64,000 bases of DNA from an uncultured Mycoplasmatota bacterium (GTDB lineage Bacteria > Bacillota_I > Bacilli_A > RF39 > UBA660), in the NCBI GenBank assembly GCA_947571135.1, contig CANOWY010000002.1, forward strand, positions 5,569 to 69,568. Reading direction: 5' to 3'. This document shows, one piece after another, positions 8,164-39,918 of the stretch; position 1 is the stretch's first letter, and each line of letters opens with the position of its first letter. The notes beneath the pieces are model-generated. The model worked only from the letters and a program-made list of their open reading frames with translations, was not told where the DNA came from and ran no database searches. The translations under genes and the position numbers were made by a program.

Positions 8164-8486
8164 TTTATCTCCTTTATTAAATTTTCCAAATCACTTTTCT
8201 TTTGGAAAAATGATAATTCTACACAACTTTTCTTTATCATTATAATATAATCATGATTATTTGGAAAGTTTTCTTTTAGTTCATCTAGGATAGCACGTAA
8301 TTGTCTCTTTATCTTATTCCTTACTACGGCATTTCCAAGTTTTTTGGATACAGCAAGACCAAAGTGTCTTTTTCCTGTTTCTGTTTTCCTTATATATATA
8401 ACAAAACTTTGGTTTTTTATAAAAGGGGAATGTTTTATGATGTTATTGAAATCTATTTTAGATTTTACTACTTCATATTTTTTCAT
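8160..8486 (-). CDS. rnpA: RNase P protein component
   Basis: 108 aa and basic, with the RNR-like motif ...KLGNAVVRNKIKRQLR. It lies between rpmH and yidC. Confidence 0.9.
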   Translation of the reverse strand: MKKYEVVKSKIDFNNIIKHSPFIKNQSFVIYIRKTETGKRHFGLAVSKKLGNAVVRNKIKRQLRAILDELKENFPNNHDYIIMIKKSCVELSFFQKKSDLENLIKEIK

Positions 8487-8534
8487 AATATCCCTTCTTT
8501 CTGTAATATAGCAAAAAAACCACAGAAATGTGGT

Positions 8535-8663
8535 TTATTTCGTAATTAGGTTTTTACGGCCTTTTTTTCTTCTATTTTTTAAAATTTTCGTTTCTTTACG
8601 TGCAAAAAAACCATGTTTCTTTGCTTTTTTTCTTTTATTTGGTTGATAAGTACCTATTTTCAT
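8535..8663 (-). CDS. rpmH: 50S ribosomal protein L34
   Basis: Manual translation gives MKIGTYQPNKRKKAKKHGFFARKETKILKNRRKKGRKNLITK. It is not in the ORF track because it is shorter than the ORF-track length cutoff. Confidence 0.9.
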   Translation of the reverse strand: MKIGTYQPNKRKKAKKHGFFARKETKILKNRRKKGRKNLITK

Positions 8664-8885
8664 AAACGTTCCTCCTTAAATCTAAAGTCATTTTATTATA
8701 ATATTAGGCGAATCAAAATGTCAAGGAATAGATGATTCATTTTATGTTTTTATAAGGGAAAATATTTCTTTTTTATTTCGAGGCCCTTTTTTATTTTTAA
8801 GATTAAAATGTGAAGAAGTTTTTTTCTCATTCTAAATTATCAATAAGTATTAAAAATAGTTATTATAAAATAAATGTGCAAAATG

Positions 8886-9063
8886 TGTGCATAATCTTTT
8901 CTTTTAAATATTTGGGAAATATTGATTATAAACATTAATAACTTTATGTGGATAAATTTTATACACGATGTGAATAAAAAAATTAAAAATTTGTGGATAA
9001 TGTTGATAAATCTTAAAAAGTTAGTTATTATAATGGCGAATTGTGTGGATAACTTGTGCATAA
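8886..9063. promoter_or_regulatory. oriC DnaA-box cluster upstream of dnaA
   Basis: Perfect TGTGGATAA boxes (reverse complement of TTATCCACA) at 8947-8955, 8992-9000 and 9044-9052. One-mismatch boxes at 8886-8894, 8969-8977 and 9055-9063. All are in the same orientation within an AT-rich stretch. Confidence 0.8.
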
Positions 9064-9152
9064 CTATGTACATTTGCTTTTTCACTTTTCAATATTCAAT
9101 TAATGAGATACAATGAACTTACTTAGGGTAGCAGATAGCGGGGTGATGGAAT

Positions 9153-29899: not shown

Positions 29900-30115
29900 T
29901 AATATACAGATAATTAATGAAGAAGGAAAGAGTAGTGCTTTTTCTTTATGAGAAGAGAGTTTACGTTTGGTGAGAGTAAATATAAAGATGGGTATGAACA
30001 TGGTTCTGGAGTTAAATCGGATACTTCACGTTATGAAGAAAAGTGCATGATTAAAATCATGAATTAAGGTGGTACCGCGGATATTGTTTCGCCCTTAATT
30101 TATGATTTTTTTGTT
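29900..30115 (+). promoter_or_regulatory. T-box riboswitch leader (probably Met-specific)
   Basis: The canonical T-box sequence AATTAAGGTGGTACCGCGG sits at 30062-30080. A terminator helix (AATTAAGG/CCTTAATT) is followed by a T8 run. Stem-I-like GA-rich elements and AUG triplets followed by A lie at about 30000-30010. The leader is upstream of the SDR-metG operon. Confidence 0.7.
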
Positions 30116-30126
30116 TTTAAGGAGGA

Positions 30127-30868
30127 ATGATGATGAATAAAGTAGTTATGATAACAGGTGCTCGTCGAGGTTTAGGACTTGCATGCGCTAAAAAATTTTC
30201 TGAGGGGGGGGTACTGCGTTGTATTAAATGGTAGAAGTCATGAAGAGGAAATGCATGTTATTTCTAAAGAGTTAGAAGAAAAATATTCTATAGAGTGTCT
30301 TGTTTGTATGGGAGATATTGCAAACGAAGAGGATGTAAAAAGAATGCTTGATGAAGTACAAAATAAATTTGGAAGATTGGATGTACTCGTTAATAACGCT
30401 GGGATTGTTTATGATATGGAAATAGAAGAAAGGGCAACAAGTGTATTTGAAGAAACCATGCATAATAATGTTACAGGTACTTATCTAATGTGTAAGTATT
30501 TTGGTAATTTCATGAAGAGCCAAGATTTTATGACGAGAATTATTAATATATCGAGTACAAATGGTATTAATTACAATATTCCAACAAGTATTGATTATGA
30601 TGCTTCTAAAGCGGCGATAAATTCTTTAACAAAAAACTTTGCATTAGAATATGCTCCAAATATTTTAGTGAATGCTATAGCGCCTCATTGGATAAATACG
30701 GAAATGAATGTTTCTTTATCTAAAGAAGAATTGGAAGAAGAGACATCAAAAATATATTTGAAGCGATTTGCAGAACCCGAAGAAATTGCAAATTTTGTAT
30801 ATTTTTTAGGTAGTGAAGAAAATACTTATATAACTAATGAAATAATGGTTATTTCAGGTGGATATTAA
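30127..30868 (+). pseudogene. SDR-family oxidoreductase (FabG-like) interrupted by a +1 frameshift in a G8 homopolymer. It may be phase-variable or a sequencing error.
   Basis: Frame 1 reads MMMNKVVMITGARRGLGLACAKKFSEGG and then hits a stop at 30232. Frame 2 (30179-30868) continues YCVVLNGRS...NAGIV...YxxxK. The frames switch at the G run 30204-30211, and deleting one G gives an intact ~246-aa SDR. Confidence 0.7.
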
Positions 30869-32584: not shown

Positions 32585-34189
32585 TTATTTACTTAAAGAT
32601 TGTTTTAAAACTAGAGCACCATCTTCAGTAATTTCAAATTGATTTTGTTCTTCTAATAAAGGAGTGCTATTTGAATATATAATTGTTTTTTCGTTAAATT
32701 CTCCATTTAGTGTATTAAAATAGATTGTCCTGTTCTCTTTCTTCTCTTTAATTTGAAAATAATTTCCAATAGGATATATATATGTGTTTGCTTTGTTATA
32801 AATAATATTTCCTTTATTGTCTATTATGCTATTTTTAATTATTTCATAATTTCCAATAATAGTATTTCTTTTTGTTAAACAAGCATAACCATTTAAATAA
32901 CGAAAACCAAATTGTCCAAAATGAGGAGCAAATCCAAGTTGTTCATAGGGAATAGATTCTATTAAAACTTTTCCACATTCATCAATAATTTGCAAATTTT
33001 CATTAGTTTCATCGAAACCCAATCCATATTCTATTTTTGTATTTTCGTCAAAAAATTGGAAATGAATATCTTCATAAGGTGTTTCAATTGCTTTTTGTTT
33101 TGAAACAATATAAAGAATTCCTCCTTCTTTTTGTTTTAGCCAAATTTTGTCCGCTTTATTACATACCAAGTAATCGTAATTCATTACATTATCTAATTCA
33201 TATAAAATATTAAAATCCTCGTCTAATAAAGTTATATCATAGCAAATATCGTTTCCATGATTATCATAAATTATATTATTTTTAGTAATGGTTATTTTAG
33301 TTGCAAGTCCACTCATATCTAAAGGTCGGATTCCTATTCTTTCTGACTCAAAATGTTTTCCGTTAATAAGATTTATTCCAACAATTTTTGTATTTTCATT
33401 TATTTTAATATACATTAATAAAGTATCATTTTCTATTGTTGAATCAGTGATTGTTCCTAAAAGCGGTAACGGGAATTGTTTTAATATTTCTTGATCTGGA
33501 CTAATAACATAAATATTGTTATTTTTAACAATACAAATATTTCTCTTGTAATAATGTGGTTTTGTTTGGTCTTTTTTTATAACAATTTCGTTTTGTGTAT
33601 CAAATTTCTTTTCTCTATATTTTTCTATTCTTATTTCTTCTTTATCTCTGTCAATTAGTATTAAATTGTCATCGACTAAATAAGGCCAGGCTTTTCCACA
33701 ATCAAAAAGTTGCTCACCTTCTTCATTTAAAATTAATGTTCTTCTTTTTAGATAATCCTCTATAGTTGTTTCAAATAAATATAAGTCACTCCCTAAACAA
33801 CAAAATATTTCTGGCTTTAAGCCCTCGGTATTTGGAATATATTCTTTTGTTTTTAGATTAAATAATTTTTCTCCTATTTCAACTATATTTTCACTTATTT
33901 TAAAACAATTGTCATATTTATCAAAGGAAATTATAATTTCTTTTGTAGTAAAATTTATTAAATGTTTTTTCCGTTCCTTTTCCATTATGACATAAGTGGT
34001 TCCATTCATTTCGAATACATCATAAAGTTTATTAAATTCGGTGAATTCTAGAATTAGTGTTCCATTTGTTAAAAATTTTCTATTATTGCTTAATTCTATA
34101 AATAAAAATGCATCTTTTTTAACTATGTTTACTACTTTTACTTCTTTATTTCTTATACTTGTATTATTGTTACTTATTTCATTATCCAT
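32585..34189 (-). CDS. Hypothetical protein (534 aa), N/I/K-rich with no recognised domain
   Basis: A long ORF on the lagging strand with no signal peptide or catalytic motif detected. Confidence 0.5.
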   Translation of the reverse strand: MDNEISNNNTSIRNKEVKVVNIVKKDAFLFIELSNNRKFLTNGTLILEFTEFNKLYDVFEMNGTTYVIMEKERKKHLINFTTKEIIISFDKYDNCFKISENIVEIGEKLFNLKTKEYIPNTEGLKPEIFCCLGSDLYLFETTIEDYLKRRTLILNEEGEQLFDCGKAWPYLVDDNLILIDRDKEEIRIEKYREKKFDTQNEIVIKKDQTKPHYYKRNICIVKNNNIYVISPDQEILKQFPLPLLGTITDSTIENDTLLMYIKINENTKIVGINLINGKHFESERIGIRPLDMSGLATKITITKNNIIYDNHGNDICYDITLLDEDFNILYELDNVMNYDYLVCNKADKIWLKQKEGGILYIVSKQKAIETPYEDIHFQFFDENTKIEYGLGFDETNENLQIIDECGKVLIESIPYEQLGFAPHFGQFGFRYLNGYACLTKRNTIIGNYEIIKNSIIDNKGNIIYNKANTYIYPIGNYFQIKEKKENRTIYFNTLNGEFNEKTIIYSNSTPLLEEQNQFEITEDGALVLKQSLSK

Positions 34190-34257
34190 AGTCTTTCTCT
34201 CTTCTTTTTTATTATAAAGAAATATATTTTATTTGCAAGAAAAAACGAAAGTCTAGA

Positions 34258-34468
34258 AATTTACTTCTTCTTTTATTTTTGCTATATTGTTTTAGGAGGG
34301 ATACTTATGTTTTGTAATACACATTGTCATTTGTTTTAGGAATATTATGAATATATTGATGAAATTATAAAACTTGCAAAAGAACATGGGGTAACTCGTA
34401 TGATTGTAGCGGGTTGTGATGATAAGTCAAATAAAGAAGATCTTTAGTAGAAAAAGAAGAGATTTATA
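34258..34468 (+). repeat. Degenerate ~210-bp duplicate of the tatD promoter, RBS and first ~58 codons (copy 1)
   Basis: It is about 90% identical to 36802-37017. It carries a 1-nt deletion (creating TAG) and a 5-nt deletion, so it encodes only a broken TatD N-terminus (MFCNTHCHLF*). Confidence 0.8.
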
Positions 34469-34692: not shown

Positions 34693-35682
34693 ATGATTAA
34701 AATTGGAGATTTTGCAAAATTATTTAATGTTTCACTTAAAACAATTCGTTATTATGAAAAGAAGGGTTTATTAACTCCTGCTTTAGTAGATATTTATTCG
34801 GGGTATAGGTATTTTGATAAATCCAATATTATACAAATGAGTAAAATTATGGCTTTAAAGGAATTAGGCTTAGAATTAAGTGAAATTCATAATTTAAGTG
34901 ATGATTTAGTACAGAAAAAAATAAAAGAATATGAAGAACAAATAAAAAAATATTCCAATCAAATTCATATTTTGAAAACTCTTTCAAAAGAAAATGGAGG
35001 AATGAAAAATTTGAAAACGTTTATTAATGACGAAAATGCTATAGGGAAATGGCAATTAGAAGGAGTTTATGAAAGAAAGGAAGACTATCCCCAAAAAAAA
35101 ATTGAATTTGATTTAGGAATAAAAGAATTATATTTAATGCCTAGTGGTCAAGAATATTGGGTCATTTCTTGGACAAAAGGAATTCTTTATATTTCGGGTC
35201 GTGAAAATAAGTACGAGATAGAAAATGACACGATGTTTGTGGAGTTAGTGGATCCAATGGATAAAAATGAGGCTAAGATAGTAGTATACAAAAGAGTAGA
35301 TAATCGTATTTATACTATTGACGATATTCGAGTAAGAGACAATACGCAAATAGATTTTGTGGAAGATAAAAAATTGATTGGCTTTTGGAAAAGTATTGAT
35401 TTTACTAATAATAAGGATGAATTTGCTTTAAGAGTGGAAAAGAGCACGTATGATTTATCCATGAAACAAATTGTTATTACTCCTGACAATAAGGTTATGA
35501 TTGATTATGGGGATAATATTATTAATACTACTTATACTAAAGGTTATATTCTTGATTTATGTTTTAAAGATACACTTTGTAAATATGATTATAAAACTAT
35601 TAATGGAAAAGATTATTTAATTGTTGAGTGGAAAAGCGGCGATTATATATTTGGAAAAATGATAAATGCTATTATGTATTAG
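34693..35682 (+). CDS. MerR-family transcriptional regulator with a large uncharacterised C-terminal domain
   Basis: The N-terminal MerR HTH is IKIGDFAKLFNVSLKTIRYYEKKGLL...GYRYFD. A coiled-coil linker and a ~200-aa beta-rich C-terminal domain follow. Confidence 0.75.
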   Translation: MIKIGDFAKLFNVSLKTIRYYEKKGLLTPALVDIYSGYRYFDKSNIIQMSKIMALKELGLELSEIHNLSDDLVQKKIKEYEEQIKKYSNQIHILKTLSKENGGMKNLKTFINDENAIGKWQLEGVYERKEDYPQKKIEFDLGIKELYLMPSGQEYWVISWTKGILYISGRENKYEIENDTMFVELVDPMDKNEAKIVVYKRVDNRIYTIDDIRVRDNTQIDFVEDKKLIGFWKSIDFTNNKDEFALRVEKSTYDLSMKQIVITPDNKVMIDYGDNIINTTYTKGYILDLCFKDTLCKYDYKTINGKDYLIVEWKSGDYIFGKMINAIMY

Positions 35683-35822: not shown

Positions 35823-35851
35823 TTGACAGAAGGTCGGGGGGGGGTTATAAT
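35823..35851 (+). promoter_or_regulatory. Consensus sigma-A promoter TTGACA-N17-TATAAT whose spacer contains a G9 homopolymer (candidate phase-variation switch)
   Basis: The -35 is at 35823-35828, the spacer GAAGGTCGGGGGGGGGT at 35829-35845 (G9 at 35836-35844), and the -10 TATAAT at 35846-35851. The gene start is at 35880. Confidence 0.6.
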
Positions 35852-35879
35852 ACCAAACAGTTCAAGGGGTGTTTAGTGT

Positions 35880-36803
35880 ATGTGTAATCCAGAATTAAAA
35901 CAAGATATTTCTATGGCTACTAATATTATTCATGATAATAGTAATTATAAAGATAAGTATATAAAACATTGTGTCATTCCTGCTAGAGGAACAGAAAATG
36001 TGACTGAGTTATTTTCAAAAATAGAGAGTTCTTTCGAAAAATCTCTTATTGTAACAGGAAGTGGCGATCAAGCGTTAGAGGCTATCTTATATGGTGCAAA
36101 AGAAATTCATTCTTTTGATATAAATGCTCTTGCTAAATATGGTAGCGCTTTAAAATTTGCGGCGATTGAGGCATTGGAATATAATGAGTTTTGTGCATTT
36201 TATACTAAGATGTTTCCTACACAGTTATATAAAAAAATACGTGAGTTTTTAAAAGGAAATTTTTTACTTTTTTGGGATTGCATTTTTGATTATGCTTATA
36301 ACTTTGATGTTTACCATTCCCTTTTCAATGCTGATGTTCATGGAAATTTAACAAAGTTTGGTTTTTCTATTTATGATAATAAAAAAGCATATTATCAAAT
36401 TAAAGATAGATTGGGTAAAGTTGCTATTACTTATGCAACGTGTGATCTTTTAGATATACGTTCAAAATTTATGGAAGAAAATTCTTATGATTTTGTTTAT
36501 CTTTCTAATATATTTTATTATATTAATCAAACGCCTGAAATATTTAGTGATTTTATTTTACAAAATATATATCCTCTTTTAAAAGAAGATGGGGAAATGA
36601 TATTGCATTATTTATATAGTGTTTATGGAAGAAGTGATGCTATTTTTAGATCTATTTTAGAAGACATTATTTATGGAGATCAAGACATAAAAGATATTGA
36701 AGAATTTGGTAAGTATTTGAATATGAAGAAATACATTATTGAAAGTTCTGGCTATGGTTTTGGATATAAAGATAAAGATGTTGCTCTTTCTTTGAAGAGG
36801 TAA
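35880..36803 (+). CDS. Hypothetical protein, possibly DUF3419-like (BtaA-N-like SAM-dependent transferase fold)
   Basis: 307 aa. The motif block LIVTGSGDQALEAILYGAKEIHSFDINALAKYGSALKFAAIEALEY resembles the DUF3419 N-terminal signature. The assignment is tentative. Confidence 0.4.
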   Translation: MCNPELKQDISMATNIIHDNSNYKDKYIKHCVIPARGTENVTELFSKIESSFEKSLIVTGSGDQALEAILYGAKEIHSFDINALAKYGSALKFAAIEALEYNEFCAFYTKMFPTQLYKKIREFLKGNFLLFWDCIFDYAYNFDVYHSLFNADVHGNLTKFGFSIYDNKKAYYQIKDRLGKVAITYATCDLLDIRSKFMEENSYDFVYLSNIFYYINQTPEIFSDFILQNIYPLLKEDGEMILHYLYSVYGRSDAIFRSILEDIIYGDQDIKDIEEFGKYLNMKKYIIESSGYGFGYKDKDVALSLKR

Positions 36804-36851
36804 ATTTACTTCTTCTTTTGTTTTTGCTATATTGGTTTAGGAGGGATACTT

Positions 36852-37598
36852 ATGTTTTGTGATACACATTGTCATTTGTTTCGAGAGTATTATGAAGATG
36901 TTGATGAAATTATAAAACTTGCAAAAGAAAATGGGGTAAATCGTATGATTGTAGCAGGGTGTGATGATAAGTCAAATAAAGAAGTATTATCTTTAGTAGA
37001 AAAAGAAGAGATTTATGGGACACTTGGCATACATCCAGAAGAAGTAGAAAATTTTAAAGAGAGTGATTTGAATTTTATTGAAGAAAATTTACAGAATAAA
37101 AAAATTATTGCGATTGGAGAAATTGGCTTGGATTATCATTATGGAAAAGAAAATAGGAAAGATCAAATTCAATTATTTGAGTTACAACTTGCTTTAGCAG
37201 AGAAATATCATATACCAGTAGTGGTTCATTCTAGAGAGGCTACTTTAGATACAATTAATTCTTTAAAAAAATATAATGTTAAAGGTGTTATTCATTCTTT
37301 TAGTGGGAGTTTAGAAACTGCTAAAATTTATATAGAGATGGGTTTTTTACTTGGTGTTAATGGTGTAATTACATTTAAAAATTGTAATTTGAAAGATGTC
37401 ATAAAGGAAATTGATTTGCATAATATTGTATTAGAGACTGATTCTCCTTACTTAACTCCTGTACCTTTTCGTGGAAAAAGGAATGATTCTAGTAAAATTT
37501 CAGTAATTGCTGATTATATTTGTGAGTTAAAAAATGTTTCACGTGTAAAGTTAAGTGAAGTTACAAATGTAAATATTAAACAGTTTTTTGACATTTAG
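36852..37598 (+). CDS. tatD: TatD-family metal-dependent DNase/hydrolase
   Basis: 248 aa with CDTHCHL at the N-terminus and conserved His/Glu/Asp positions. It is in the yabD position after metG. Confidence 0.9.
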   Translation: MFCDTHCHLFREYYEDVDEIIKLAKENGVNRMIVAGCDDKSNKEVLSLVEKEEIYGTLGIHPEEVENFKESDLNFIEENLQNKKIIAIGEIGLDYHYGKENRKDQIQLFELQLALAEKYHIPVVVHSREATLDTINSLKKYNVKGVIHSFSGSLETAKIYIEMGFLLGVNGVITFKNCNLKDVIKEIDLHNIVLETDSPYLTPVPFRGKRNDSSKISVIADYICELKNVSRVKLSEVTNVNIKQFFDI

Positions 37599-39138: not shown

Positions 39139-39918
39139 ATGCCAGTTAAAAAAGGCGATATTGTGACTCGTAAAAGTTATGAACATGATACTTTGTTTAA
39201 AGTAATGAATATTAAAGGAAATATTTGTTATTTAAAAGGACTAGATGTTCGTTTGTATGCTGATAGTGAAGTAAGTGATTTAAGTTTGGCAACAGAAGAA
39301 GAAATAGAAGAATTAAAAAAGGAGGAAAAGGAAGAAAATGATGAGCCGCTTGATCGTAGTGCTTTCTTTTATCTTCCAGGAAAAGTTTTGCATTTGGACG
39401 GGGATAATGAATATTTAGGAAGATGTCTTGCTTATTATAAGAAACATAATATTTTTGCAGTTGGAAAAAGAGTAAGTGAATCTGAAGTGGCTAGTAAAAT
39501 TCGTAGTATGCTTCAAGAATATAATCCTGATATTGTGATTATTACAGGCCATGACGCTTATTTTAGAAAAAAAGGTAAAATGGAAGATATTCATAATTAT
39601 AAGAATACGGAAAATTTTGTGAAAGCCGTGAAAGAGTGTAGAAGATATGAAAAAAGCCATGAAAAATTAGTAGTGATTGCTGGGGCTTGTCAAAGTAATT
39701 ATGAAGAACTTATTAAGGCGGGGGCTAATTTTGCTTCTAGTCCAAAGCGTGTAAATATTCATTGCTTGGATCCAGCAATTATTGCTACAACATTATCTTT
39801 AACGGAACGGAATAAGGAAGTTGATTTGATTGCTATGCTTGAAAAAACAAAATACGGGAGTGATGGCATGGGGGGAATTATTTCCAATGGTCTTATGTAT
39901 GTTGGATATCCAAGATAA
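39139..39918 (+). CDS. yabG: Sporulation-specific protease YabG
   Basis: There is a full-length match to B. subtilis YabG (GDIVTRKSY...LF, LPGKVLHLDGD, DIVIITGHDAY, VIAGACQSNYEELIKAGANFASSPKRVNIHCLDP). Confidence 0.88.
   Translation: MPVKKGDIVTRKSYEHDTLFKVMNIKGNICYLKGLDVRLYADSEVSDLSLATEEEIEELKKEEKEENDEPLDRSAFFYLPGKVLHLDGDNEYLGRCLAYYKKHNIFAVGKRVSESEVASKIRSMLQEYNPDIVIITGHDAYFRKKGKMEDIHNYKNTENFVKAVKECRRYEKSHEKLVVIAGACQSNYEELIKAGANFASSPKRVNIHCLDPAIIATTLSLTERNKEVDLIAMLEKTKYGSDGMGGIISNGLMYVGYPR

Follow-up and report, generated by a model that had tools for sequence, protein, structure and literature searches.

A poly-G tract between the hexamers of a consensus promoter varies in length among otherwise identical genomes of an uncultured gut Firmicute: a candidate spacer-length switch for a DUF3419-like gene

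A promoter that carries a long homopolymer between its two hexamers raises the question of whether the run changes length and, if it does, whether transcription of the gene behind it changes with it. This arrangement is found at 35823-35851 of the window, by which we mean the whole 64,000-nt stretch of DNA analysed here, where a run of nine G's separates a -35 from a -10 element just upstream of a DUF3419-like gene (Table 1). The earlier note had described a consensus promoter with a G9 homopolymer as its 17-nt spacer and a gene start at 35880. All of these coordinates were verified in the sequence and the spacer does measure 17 nt, whereas the homopolymer fills 9 of these 17 positions, the rest being GAAGGTC and a single T. 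No other sigma-70-type promoter matching at 12 of 12 hexamer positions occurs in the 64 kb; dinucleotide shuffles gave a mean of 0.04 such matches per window, with at least one match in 4 of 100 shuffles.

The promoter is conserved beyond the window. TTGACA or TTGACT occupies the -35 position in every orthologous locus, tract-less ones included, and both hexamers, the ribosome-binding site and the distance to the start codon are kept in the orthologs, with the DNA 5' of the -35 element diverged or unalignable. Two orthologs have the promoter without a G tract, namely L007 (48% identical protein), which reads TTGACA-17-TATAAT, and L024 (57% identical protein), which reads TTGACA-18-TATAAT (L numbers denote comparative loci).

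Table 1. Positions of the promoter elements, the two poly-G tracts and neighbouring features in the window
Feature	Position	Strand	Basis or remark
T-box leader	29911-30099		Rfam RF00230 at 110 bits; lies ahead of SDR and metG
SDR (short-chain dehydrogenase) gene, frameshifted here by G8	30127-30868	+	frame and Pfam match
Second variable poly-G tract, G8, intragenic frameshift switch	30204-30211	+	G7/G8/G9 across contigs
534-aa ORF	32585-34189	-	part of the strain-variable metG-to-promoter block
215-nt direct duplication, upstream copy	34257-34467		92% identical to the downstream copy
MerR-family gene	34693-35682		directly upstream of the promoter
-35 hexamer TTGACA	35823-35828	+	read off window sequence
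Spacer GAAGGTC + G9 + T, 17 nt	35829-35845	+	read off window sequence
G9 homopolymer, variable element	35836-35844	+	run census and shuffles
-10 hexamer TATAAT	35846-35851	+	same in every ortholog
Predicted transcription start	35857-35859	+	inferred from promoter geometry, 6-8 nt past the -10
Ribosome-binding site AAGGGGTG	35864-35871	+	kept in orthologs
Start ATG of DUF3419-like gene	35880	+	
DUF3419-like gene, 307 aa, class I SAM-dependent transferase fold	35880-36803	+	
Terminator-like hairpin and T run, gene end	36794-36825	+	9-bp stem; MFE -16.1 kcal/mol, z-score -2.2
215-nt direct duplication, downstream copy	36802-37016		92% identical to the upstream copy

Long G runs are exceptional at this base composition. 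The window contains 17.0% G and 10.5% C (GC about 27%), and its only G or C runs of at least 6 nt are the promoter G9, a G8 inside an SDR gene 5.6 kb upstream and a G6 (39870-39875). At these frequencies a G9 or C9 run should turn up about once in 8 Mb, in agreement with the claim that chance would produce one less than once per several megabases. Three matches to G8 or longer, belonging to two tracts, compare with 0.06 expected, and none of 100 shuffles reached three. Tandem Repeats Finder reported no other contingency-type repeat in the window.

The comparison of tract length covered 23 independent assemblies (metagenomes or MAGs) from this lineage and its sisters, the window included, with all comparative loci gathered by exact-protein look-ups. 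They comprise four flank types of the window's own clade and two species whose protein orthologs are 57% identical. A G tract of G8 to G11 lies between the hexamers in 23 of these 23 tract-bearing assemblies, giving spacers of 16 nt (1 assembly), 17 nt (13), 18 nt (4), 19 nt (4) and 20 nt (1). Behind the window's flank, GAAGGTC, the tract is G9 in the window, L001, L002 and L018, G10 in L014 and L034, and G11 in L026, L029, L030 and L035. The flank AAGTCC is followed by G9 in L011, G10 in L005 and L031, and G11 in L010; AAGTAC by G10 in L006 and L017; and AAGTAT by G10 in L009, L012 and L016. As for the two 57% ortholog species, one has the flank TTTTGTTCA after TTGACT, with G8 (L022), G9 (L023) or G11 (L021), and the other has AAAGTC with G10 (L025). 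A megablast of the locus against a plasmid collection gave no match, nor did DNA-pattern and protein scans of the JGI metagenome collection.

Part of this variation separates genomes that are otherwise the same. L031 (G10), L010 (G11) and L011 (G9) have 0 mismatches over 2.7-3.4 kb, as have L021 (G11) and L023 (G9) over 3982 nt; in both sets the tract alone differs. The earlier note had called for a comparison of strains and held that a tract invariant among relatives would speak against switching: across the 23 assemblies the length instead runs from G8 to G11, in some cases between assemblies 100% identical over the remaining 2.7-4 kb. Some sublineages hold a stable tract, with G9 in 4 of 4 contigs of the window's own clone and G11 in 4 of 4 contigs of a sister clone, in which the 19-nt state seems to be fixed; switching would thus be too slow for every sample to differ.

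These lengths are consensus calls from metagenome assemblies, with coverage of 2.4-5x where stated, and poly-G is a hard, error-prone template on some Illumina chemistries. Both points favour a reading in which the tract is real and its length differences are homopolymer sequencing or assembly noise, with no switching in vivo. The same reading gains from the behaviour of contigs at the tracts. In L003, L004, L016, L023 and L033 the sequence ends or turns into an N gap no farther than about 20 nt from the promoter tract, the N10 of the L033 scaffold (1029-1038) lying exactly over it, and L017 ends beside the SDR tract, its positions 1-110 being junk C-rich sequence. Breaks of this kind are also the outcome that reads of heterogeneous length would give. 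As a control, we followed all window homopolymers at 26-41 kb that have identical 12-nt flanks in other loci. The 72 A/T runs of 6-10 nt yielded 405 observations (A10 14 times, A9 5 times) and 0 length variants, and the G5-G6 runs 25 observations and 0 variants; in the same set the promoter G9 differs in 6 of 9 observations and the SDR G8 in 2 of 3. No other indels were found in near-identical loci. Because the A10, the A9, the 70 other A/T runs and the G5-G6 runs keep their lengths in the same assemblies, generic assembly noise fails to explain the tract-length pattern. An error specific to long G runs is disfavoured, since it would produce neither lengths that recur across independent samples of one clone (G9 four times, G11 four times) nor differences as large as 2-3 nt (G8, G9, G11); the SDR tract, moreover, varies though it is only 7-9 nt long, and the lengths of flank and promoter tract co-vary to 17 nt. 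We therefore regard noise as a highly improbable source of the variation. The proviso that the tract might be a homopolymer sequencing artefact accordingly falls for generic noise and is weakened for long-G-specific error.

In the co-variation of flank and tract, a spacer of 17 nt results from G9 with a 7+1-nt flank, from G10 with 6+1 nt and from G8 with 9+0 nt. The modal spacer is 17 nt for all six flank types but GAAGGTC, where four assemblies have 17 nt and four have 19 nt. Compensation of this sort is expected if selection sees the 17-nt spacing. It also bears on the view that treats the tract as a neutral hot spot of mutation, slipping without a selected regulatory role and persisting by chance. 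Two orthologous promoters, those of L007 and L024, do without the tract, the 19-nt state recurs in four samples of one clone and the regulated gene carries no assigned function, all of which suit neutrality. Against these stand the expectation of a G9 or longer run only once per 8 Mb or so, the retention of the tract in the same spacer down to 57% protein identity despite turnover of the intergenic DNA around it, and a modal spacer of 17 nt outside the GAAGGTC type, which requires compensating changes. The DUF3419-like ORF, in addition, is intact in all assemblies and in every spacer state. On balance, a neutral hot spot appears unlikely.

The G run might instead serve as a protein-binding or structural element, either as an operator for the MerR-like protein on the 19-nt forms or as a G-quadruplex. 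A spacer of 19 nt is typical of MerR-activated promoters, a MerR-family gene does lie directly upstream, and the lineage that has it includes 19-nt spacers. Yet the spacer measures 17 nt in the window, no dyad symmetry or inverted repeat was found in or around it, and most lineages that share the promoter and tract lack the MerR-like gene, on which grounds a MerR-type activated promoter was rejected. An intramolecular G-quadruplex was ruled out by reasoning: it needs four G runs, the spacer offers just one, of G9-G11, and conservation does not extend to the GG beside it. Of all the readings considered, an operator or structural role is the one to which we give least credence.

The reading that we prefer, and consider probable, is that of a simple-sequence contingency locus at which slippage of the G run shifts the spacing around a 17-nt optimum and thereby grades transcription of the DUF3419-like gene. 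By its sequence, the locus would be classed as simple-sequence-repeat phase variation of a promoter spacer: the homopolymer between the hexamers exceeds the minimum of about 7 nt for this class, its length varies behind the same flank, and the variation is specific to the tract. The consensus promoter, of the housekeeping-sigma type, would drive this single gene, with the poly-G setting the -35/-10 distance. Slipped-strand mispairing at replication would add or remove G's and move the spacer among 16, 17, 18, 19 and 20 nt. Full strength would come at 17 nt (G9 in the window), lower initiation at 16 or 18 nt and near silence at 19 or 20 nt, the net effect being a heritable yet reversible dimmer. 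An ON/OFF or volume effect is what the behaviour of sigma-70/sigma-A promoters would predict, and the modal 17-nt spacer with its compensating flanks suggests that tract length does affect expression; we infer, too, that slippage is the cause, that populations switch internally and reversibly, and that this is adaptive. Work on the tac, trc and tic promoters reportedly indicates that a one-nt change of spacer may alter output only modestly when the hexamers are perfect. Both hexamers are perfect here, so the loss of strength at 16 or 18 nt may be mild, with strong impairment to be expected at 19 or 20 nt.

The regulated gene encodes a putative transferase. Its product matches Pfam DUF3419 at 37.2 bits (cut-off 28.2), over the SAM-binding part only (profile positions 35-116 of 385), and homologs of the protein also carry PF11899. 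The AlphaFold2 model (pLDDT 78.6, pTM 0.83) displays a class I SAM-dependent methyltransferase fold with a helical insertion, and fold searches returned generic class I methyltransferases. A full HMMER search places the protein in a large family of about 300 aa, with 3189 representatives at E <= 0.001 and 2276 at E <= 1e-10; an NCBIfam search gave no match and a PDB sequence search no significant one. DUF3419 is a domain of betaine-lipid synthases (BTA1) (PMC10685587). A match of 82 of 385 profile positions does not imply BtaA/BTA1 function, and this candidate was rejected with no full-length DUF3419 match and folds that are those of generic methyltransferases. With a hairpin and T run at its end, the gene appears to form a unit by itself. 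On its upstream side, the stretch from the MerR-like gene to the promoter showed no terminator, and transcripts reading through from there might obscure an OFF state.

The second long G tract lies in the 5' coding region of the SDR gene, where the earlier note had placed it, and it also breaks the frame. Read from the ATG at 30127, the G8 frame of the window meets a TAG at about 30231, whereas G7 lets the frame run on through ...E-G-G-Y-C-V-V-L-N-G-R... to the end of the gene; the Pfam SDR match in the window begins at profile position 15-18. Related contigs show all the corresponding states: G7 with an intact SDR of 244-245 aa in L020 and L041, G8 in the window and L019, and G9 in L018, with a stop after about 35 codons for G8 and G9. 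The tract is the only indel over 3.9-8.6 kb in these contigs, which are 0-2 SNPs from the window. Orthologous SDR genes of other species carry a tract at the same site, G9 and in frame in L025 and G10 in L017. As judged from its sequence, this tract, alternating between in-frame and out-of-frame lengths among strains, qualifies as intragenic (translational) poly-G phase variation, in which G7 is ON and G8 and G9 are OFF by frameshift; the SDR of the window is a pseudogene look-alike produced by its G8. The two tracts are unlinked in state, as L018 combines an out-of-frame SDR with a 17-nt promoter spacer and sample ERZ14864657 an in-frame SDR with a 17-nt spacer. The notion of a poly-G theme in this organism holds, the second tract being variable too.

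Most of the known homopolymer contingency loci come from a small number of pathogens, namely Neisseria, Haemophilus, Campylobacter, Helicobacter, Treponema and Mycoplasma. The likening of the promoter to contingency loci of Mycoplasma, Neisseria and Haemophilus proved fitting, with porA, fetA and tp0126 as its closest counterparts. In T. pallidum, tp0126 has a poly-G between its -35 and -10 elements and is transcribed best at 17 nt; promoter poly-G tracts there span 7-11 G's within and between isolates, and tprE/G/J and tprL have poly-G promoters too (PMC7864442). The locus at 35823-35851 is like tp0126 in its G homopolymer between hexamers, the optimum in tp0126 being 17 nt. The T. pallidum targets are predicted outer-membrane proteins of a pathogen, whereas the target in our uncultured gut Firmicute is a SAM-dependent transferase of cytoplasmic appearance; length heterogeneity and its effect on a reporter have been measured in T. 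pallidum, whereas the present locus is known from comparison between assemblies. Changes in -10/-35 spacing grade expression from high to none at N. meningitidis porA (poly-G) and N. gonorrhoeae fetA (poly-C) (PMC5320596; PMC7864442). These two loci share the homopolymer between -10 and -35 with ours but belong to Gram-negative hosts, encode surface proteins and have non-consensus promoters; with a 12/12 promoter, one-nt changes may be milder here. At the vlp promoters of Mycoplasma hyorhinis a poly-A tract in the -35/-10 spacer sets ON or OFF. The likeness lies in the spacer homopolymer and the low-GC organism; the differences are poly-A in place of poly-G and targets that are surface lipoproteins of a multigene family. 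The SDR tract in turn resembles the intragenic poly-G contingency genes of Campylobacter, Helicobacter and Neisseria, with G7/G8/G9 near the 5' coding end, as covered by phasome surveys (PMC6321876, PMC5953494). Those genes concern surface structures or restriction-modification, whereas here a dehydrogenase stands between a T-box leader and metG.

The type of mechanism is therefore already known; what is new is its setting in an uncultured gut Firmicute, its conservation from species to species and its cytoplasmic-type enzyme targets. In the literature searches, the papers on phase variation in gut commensals dealt with invertible DNA, and none treated homopolymer switches in commensal Firmicutes. 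Each of the window's two long G tracts differs in length between genomes that are otherwise the same, and each is conserved across species, a pattern that suggests slippage-based bet-hedging in these members of the microbiome as well, with metabolic or modification enzymes as its targets. Tracts of this kind make genes resemble pseudogenes, as with the SDR in the window, and break short-read metagenome assemblies. A broader proposal, for which our confidence is low, is that a spore-former-like gut clade keeps a cross-species poly-G 'phasome' on cytoplasmic enzymes, made up of a transferase dimmer and an SDR frameshift switch. Under this proposal, should the transferase act on a global target (RNA, lipid or metabolite), the outcome would be heritable physiological subpopulations, phasevarion-like, in a commensal.

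The window is chromosomal and near a replication origin, with dnaA (9153), dnaN, gyrB, dnaX, mfd and spoVT, and shows a strong positive GC skew past about 9 kb. The skew changes sign at about 8200-9150, followed by dnaA-dnaN-(recF)-gyrB-gyrA, and the origin itself probably lies there, inside the window. In both long tracts the G's are on the leading strand. From the T-box leader onward the order is SDR, metG, the 534-aa ORF, the MerR-like gene, the promoter and the DUF3419-like gene. The phase-variable SDR, preceded by the T-box leader, thus lies in an apparent T-box-controlled metG operon. On the 3' side of the DUF3419-like gene come tatD, a 184-aa ORF, ksgA, yabG, veg and spoVG; the 184-aa ORF, which has no Pfam match, we take to be rnmV from conserved Firmicute gene order. 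The sporulation-type genes, those for SpoVT, YabG, SpoVG and Veg, speak for a low-GC Firmicute that forms spores. Related contigs come from gut metagenomes, and one record name says mouse gut.

The region between metG and the promoter differs among strains. The 215-nt direct duplication has copied the terminator and the 5' region of tatD to a site upstream of the MerR-like gene, and in L009 and L010 metG is directly upstream of the promoter. Given these two observations, the block formed by the 534-aa ORF (no Pfam or NCBIfam match), a 72-aa ORF and the MerR-like gene appears to have arisen by insertion or rearrangement. Farther upstream, the genes called right after the same spoVT-side flank in L037, L038 and L040 are those for a 114-115 aa protein and an APH-like kinase in place of the SDR-metG pair. 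Near its 3' end, at 35668, the MerR-like gene has a 1-nt indel (G vs GG) relative to L014, L026, L029, L030 and L034; its product is 329 aa long in the window and 335 aa in L026, the sole complete called gene of the five. In L007, the most distant relative, an A9 run (846-854) splits the SDR into 81 and 161 aa, and one more A would keep the frame, so the SDR is broken at a homopolymer in a second species too.
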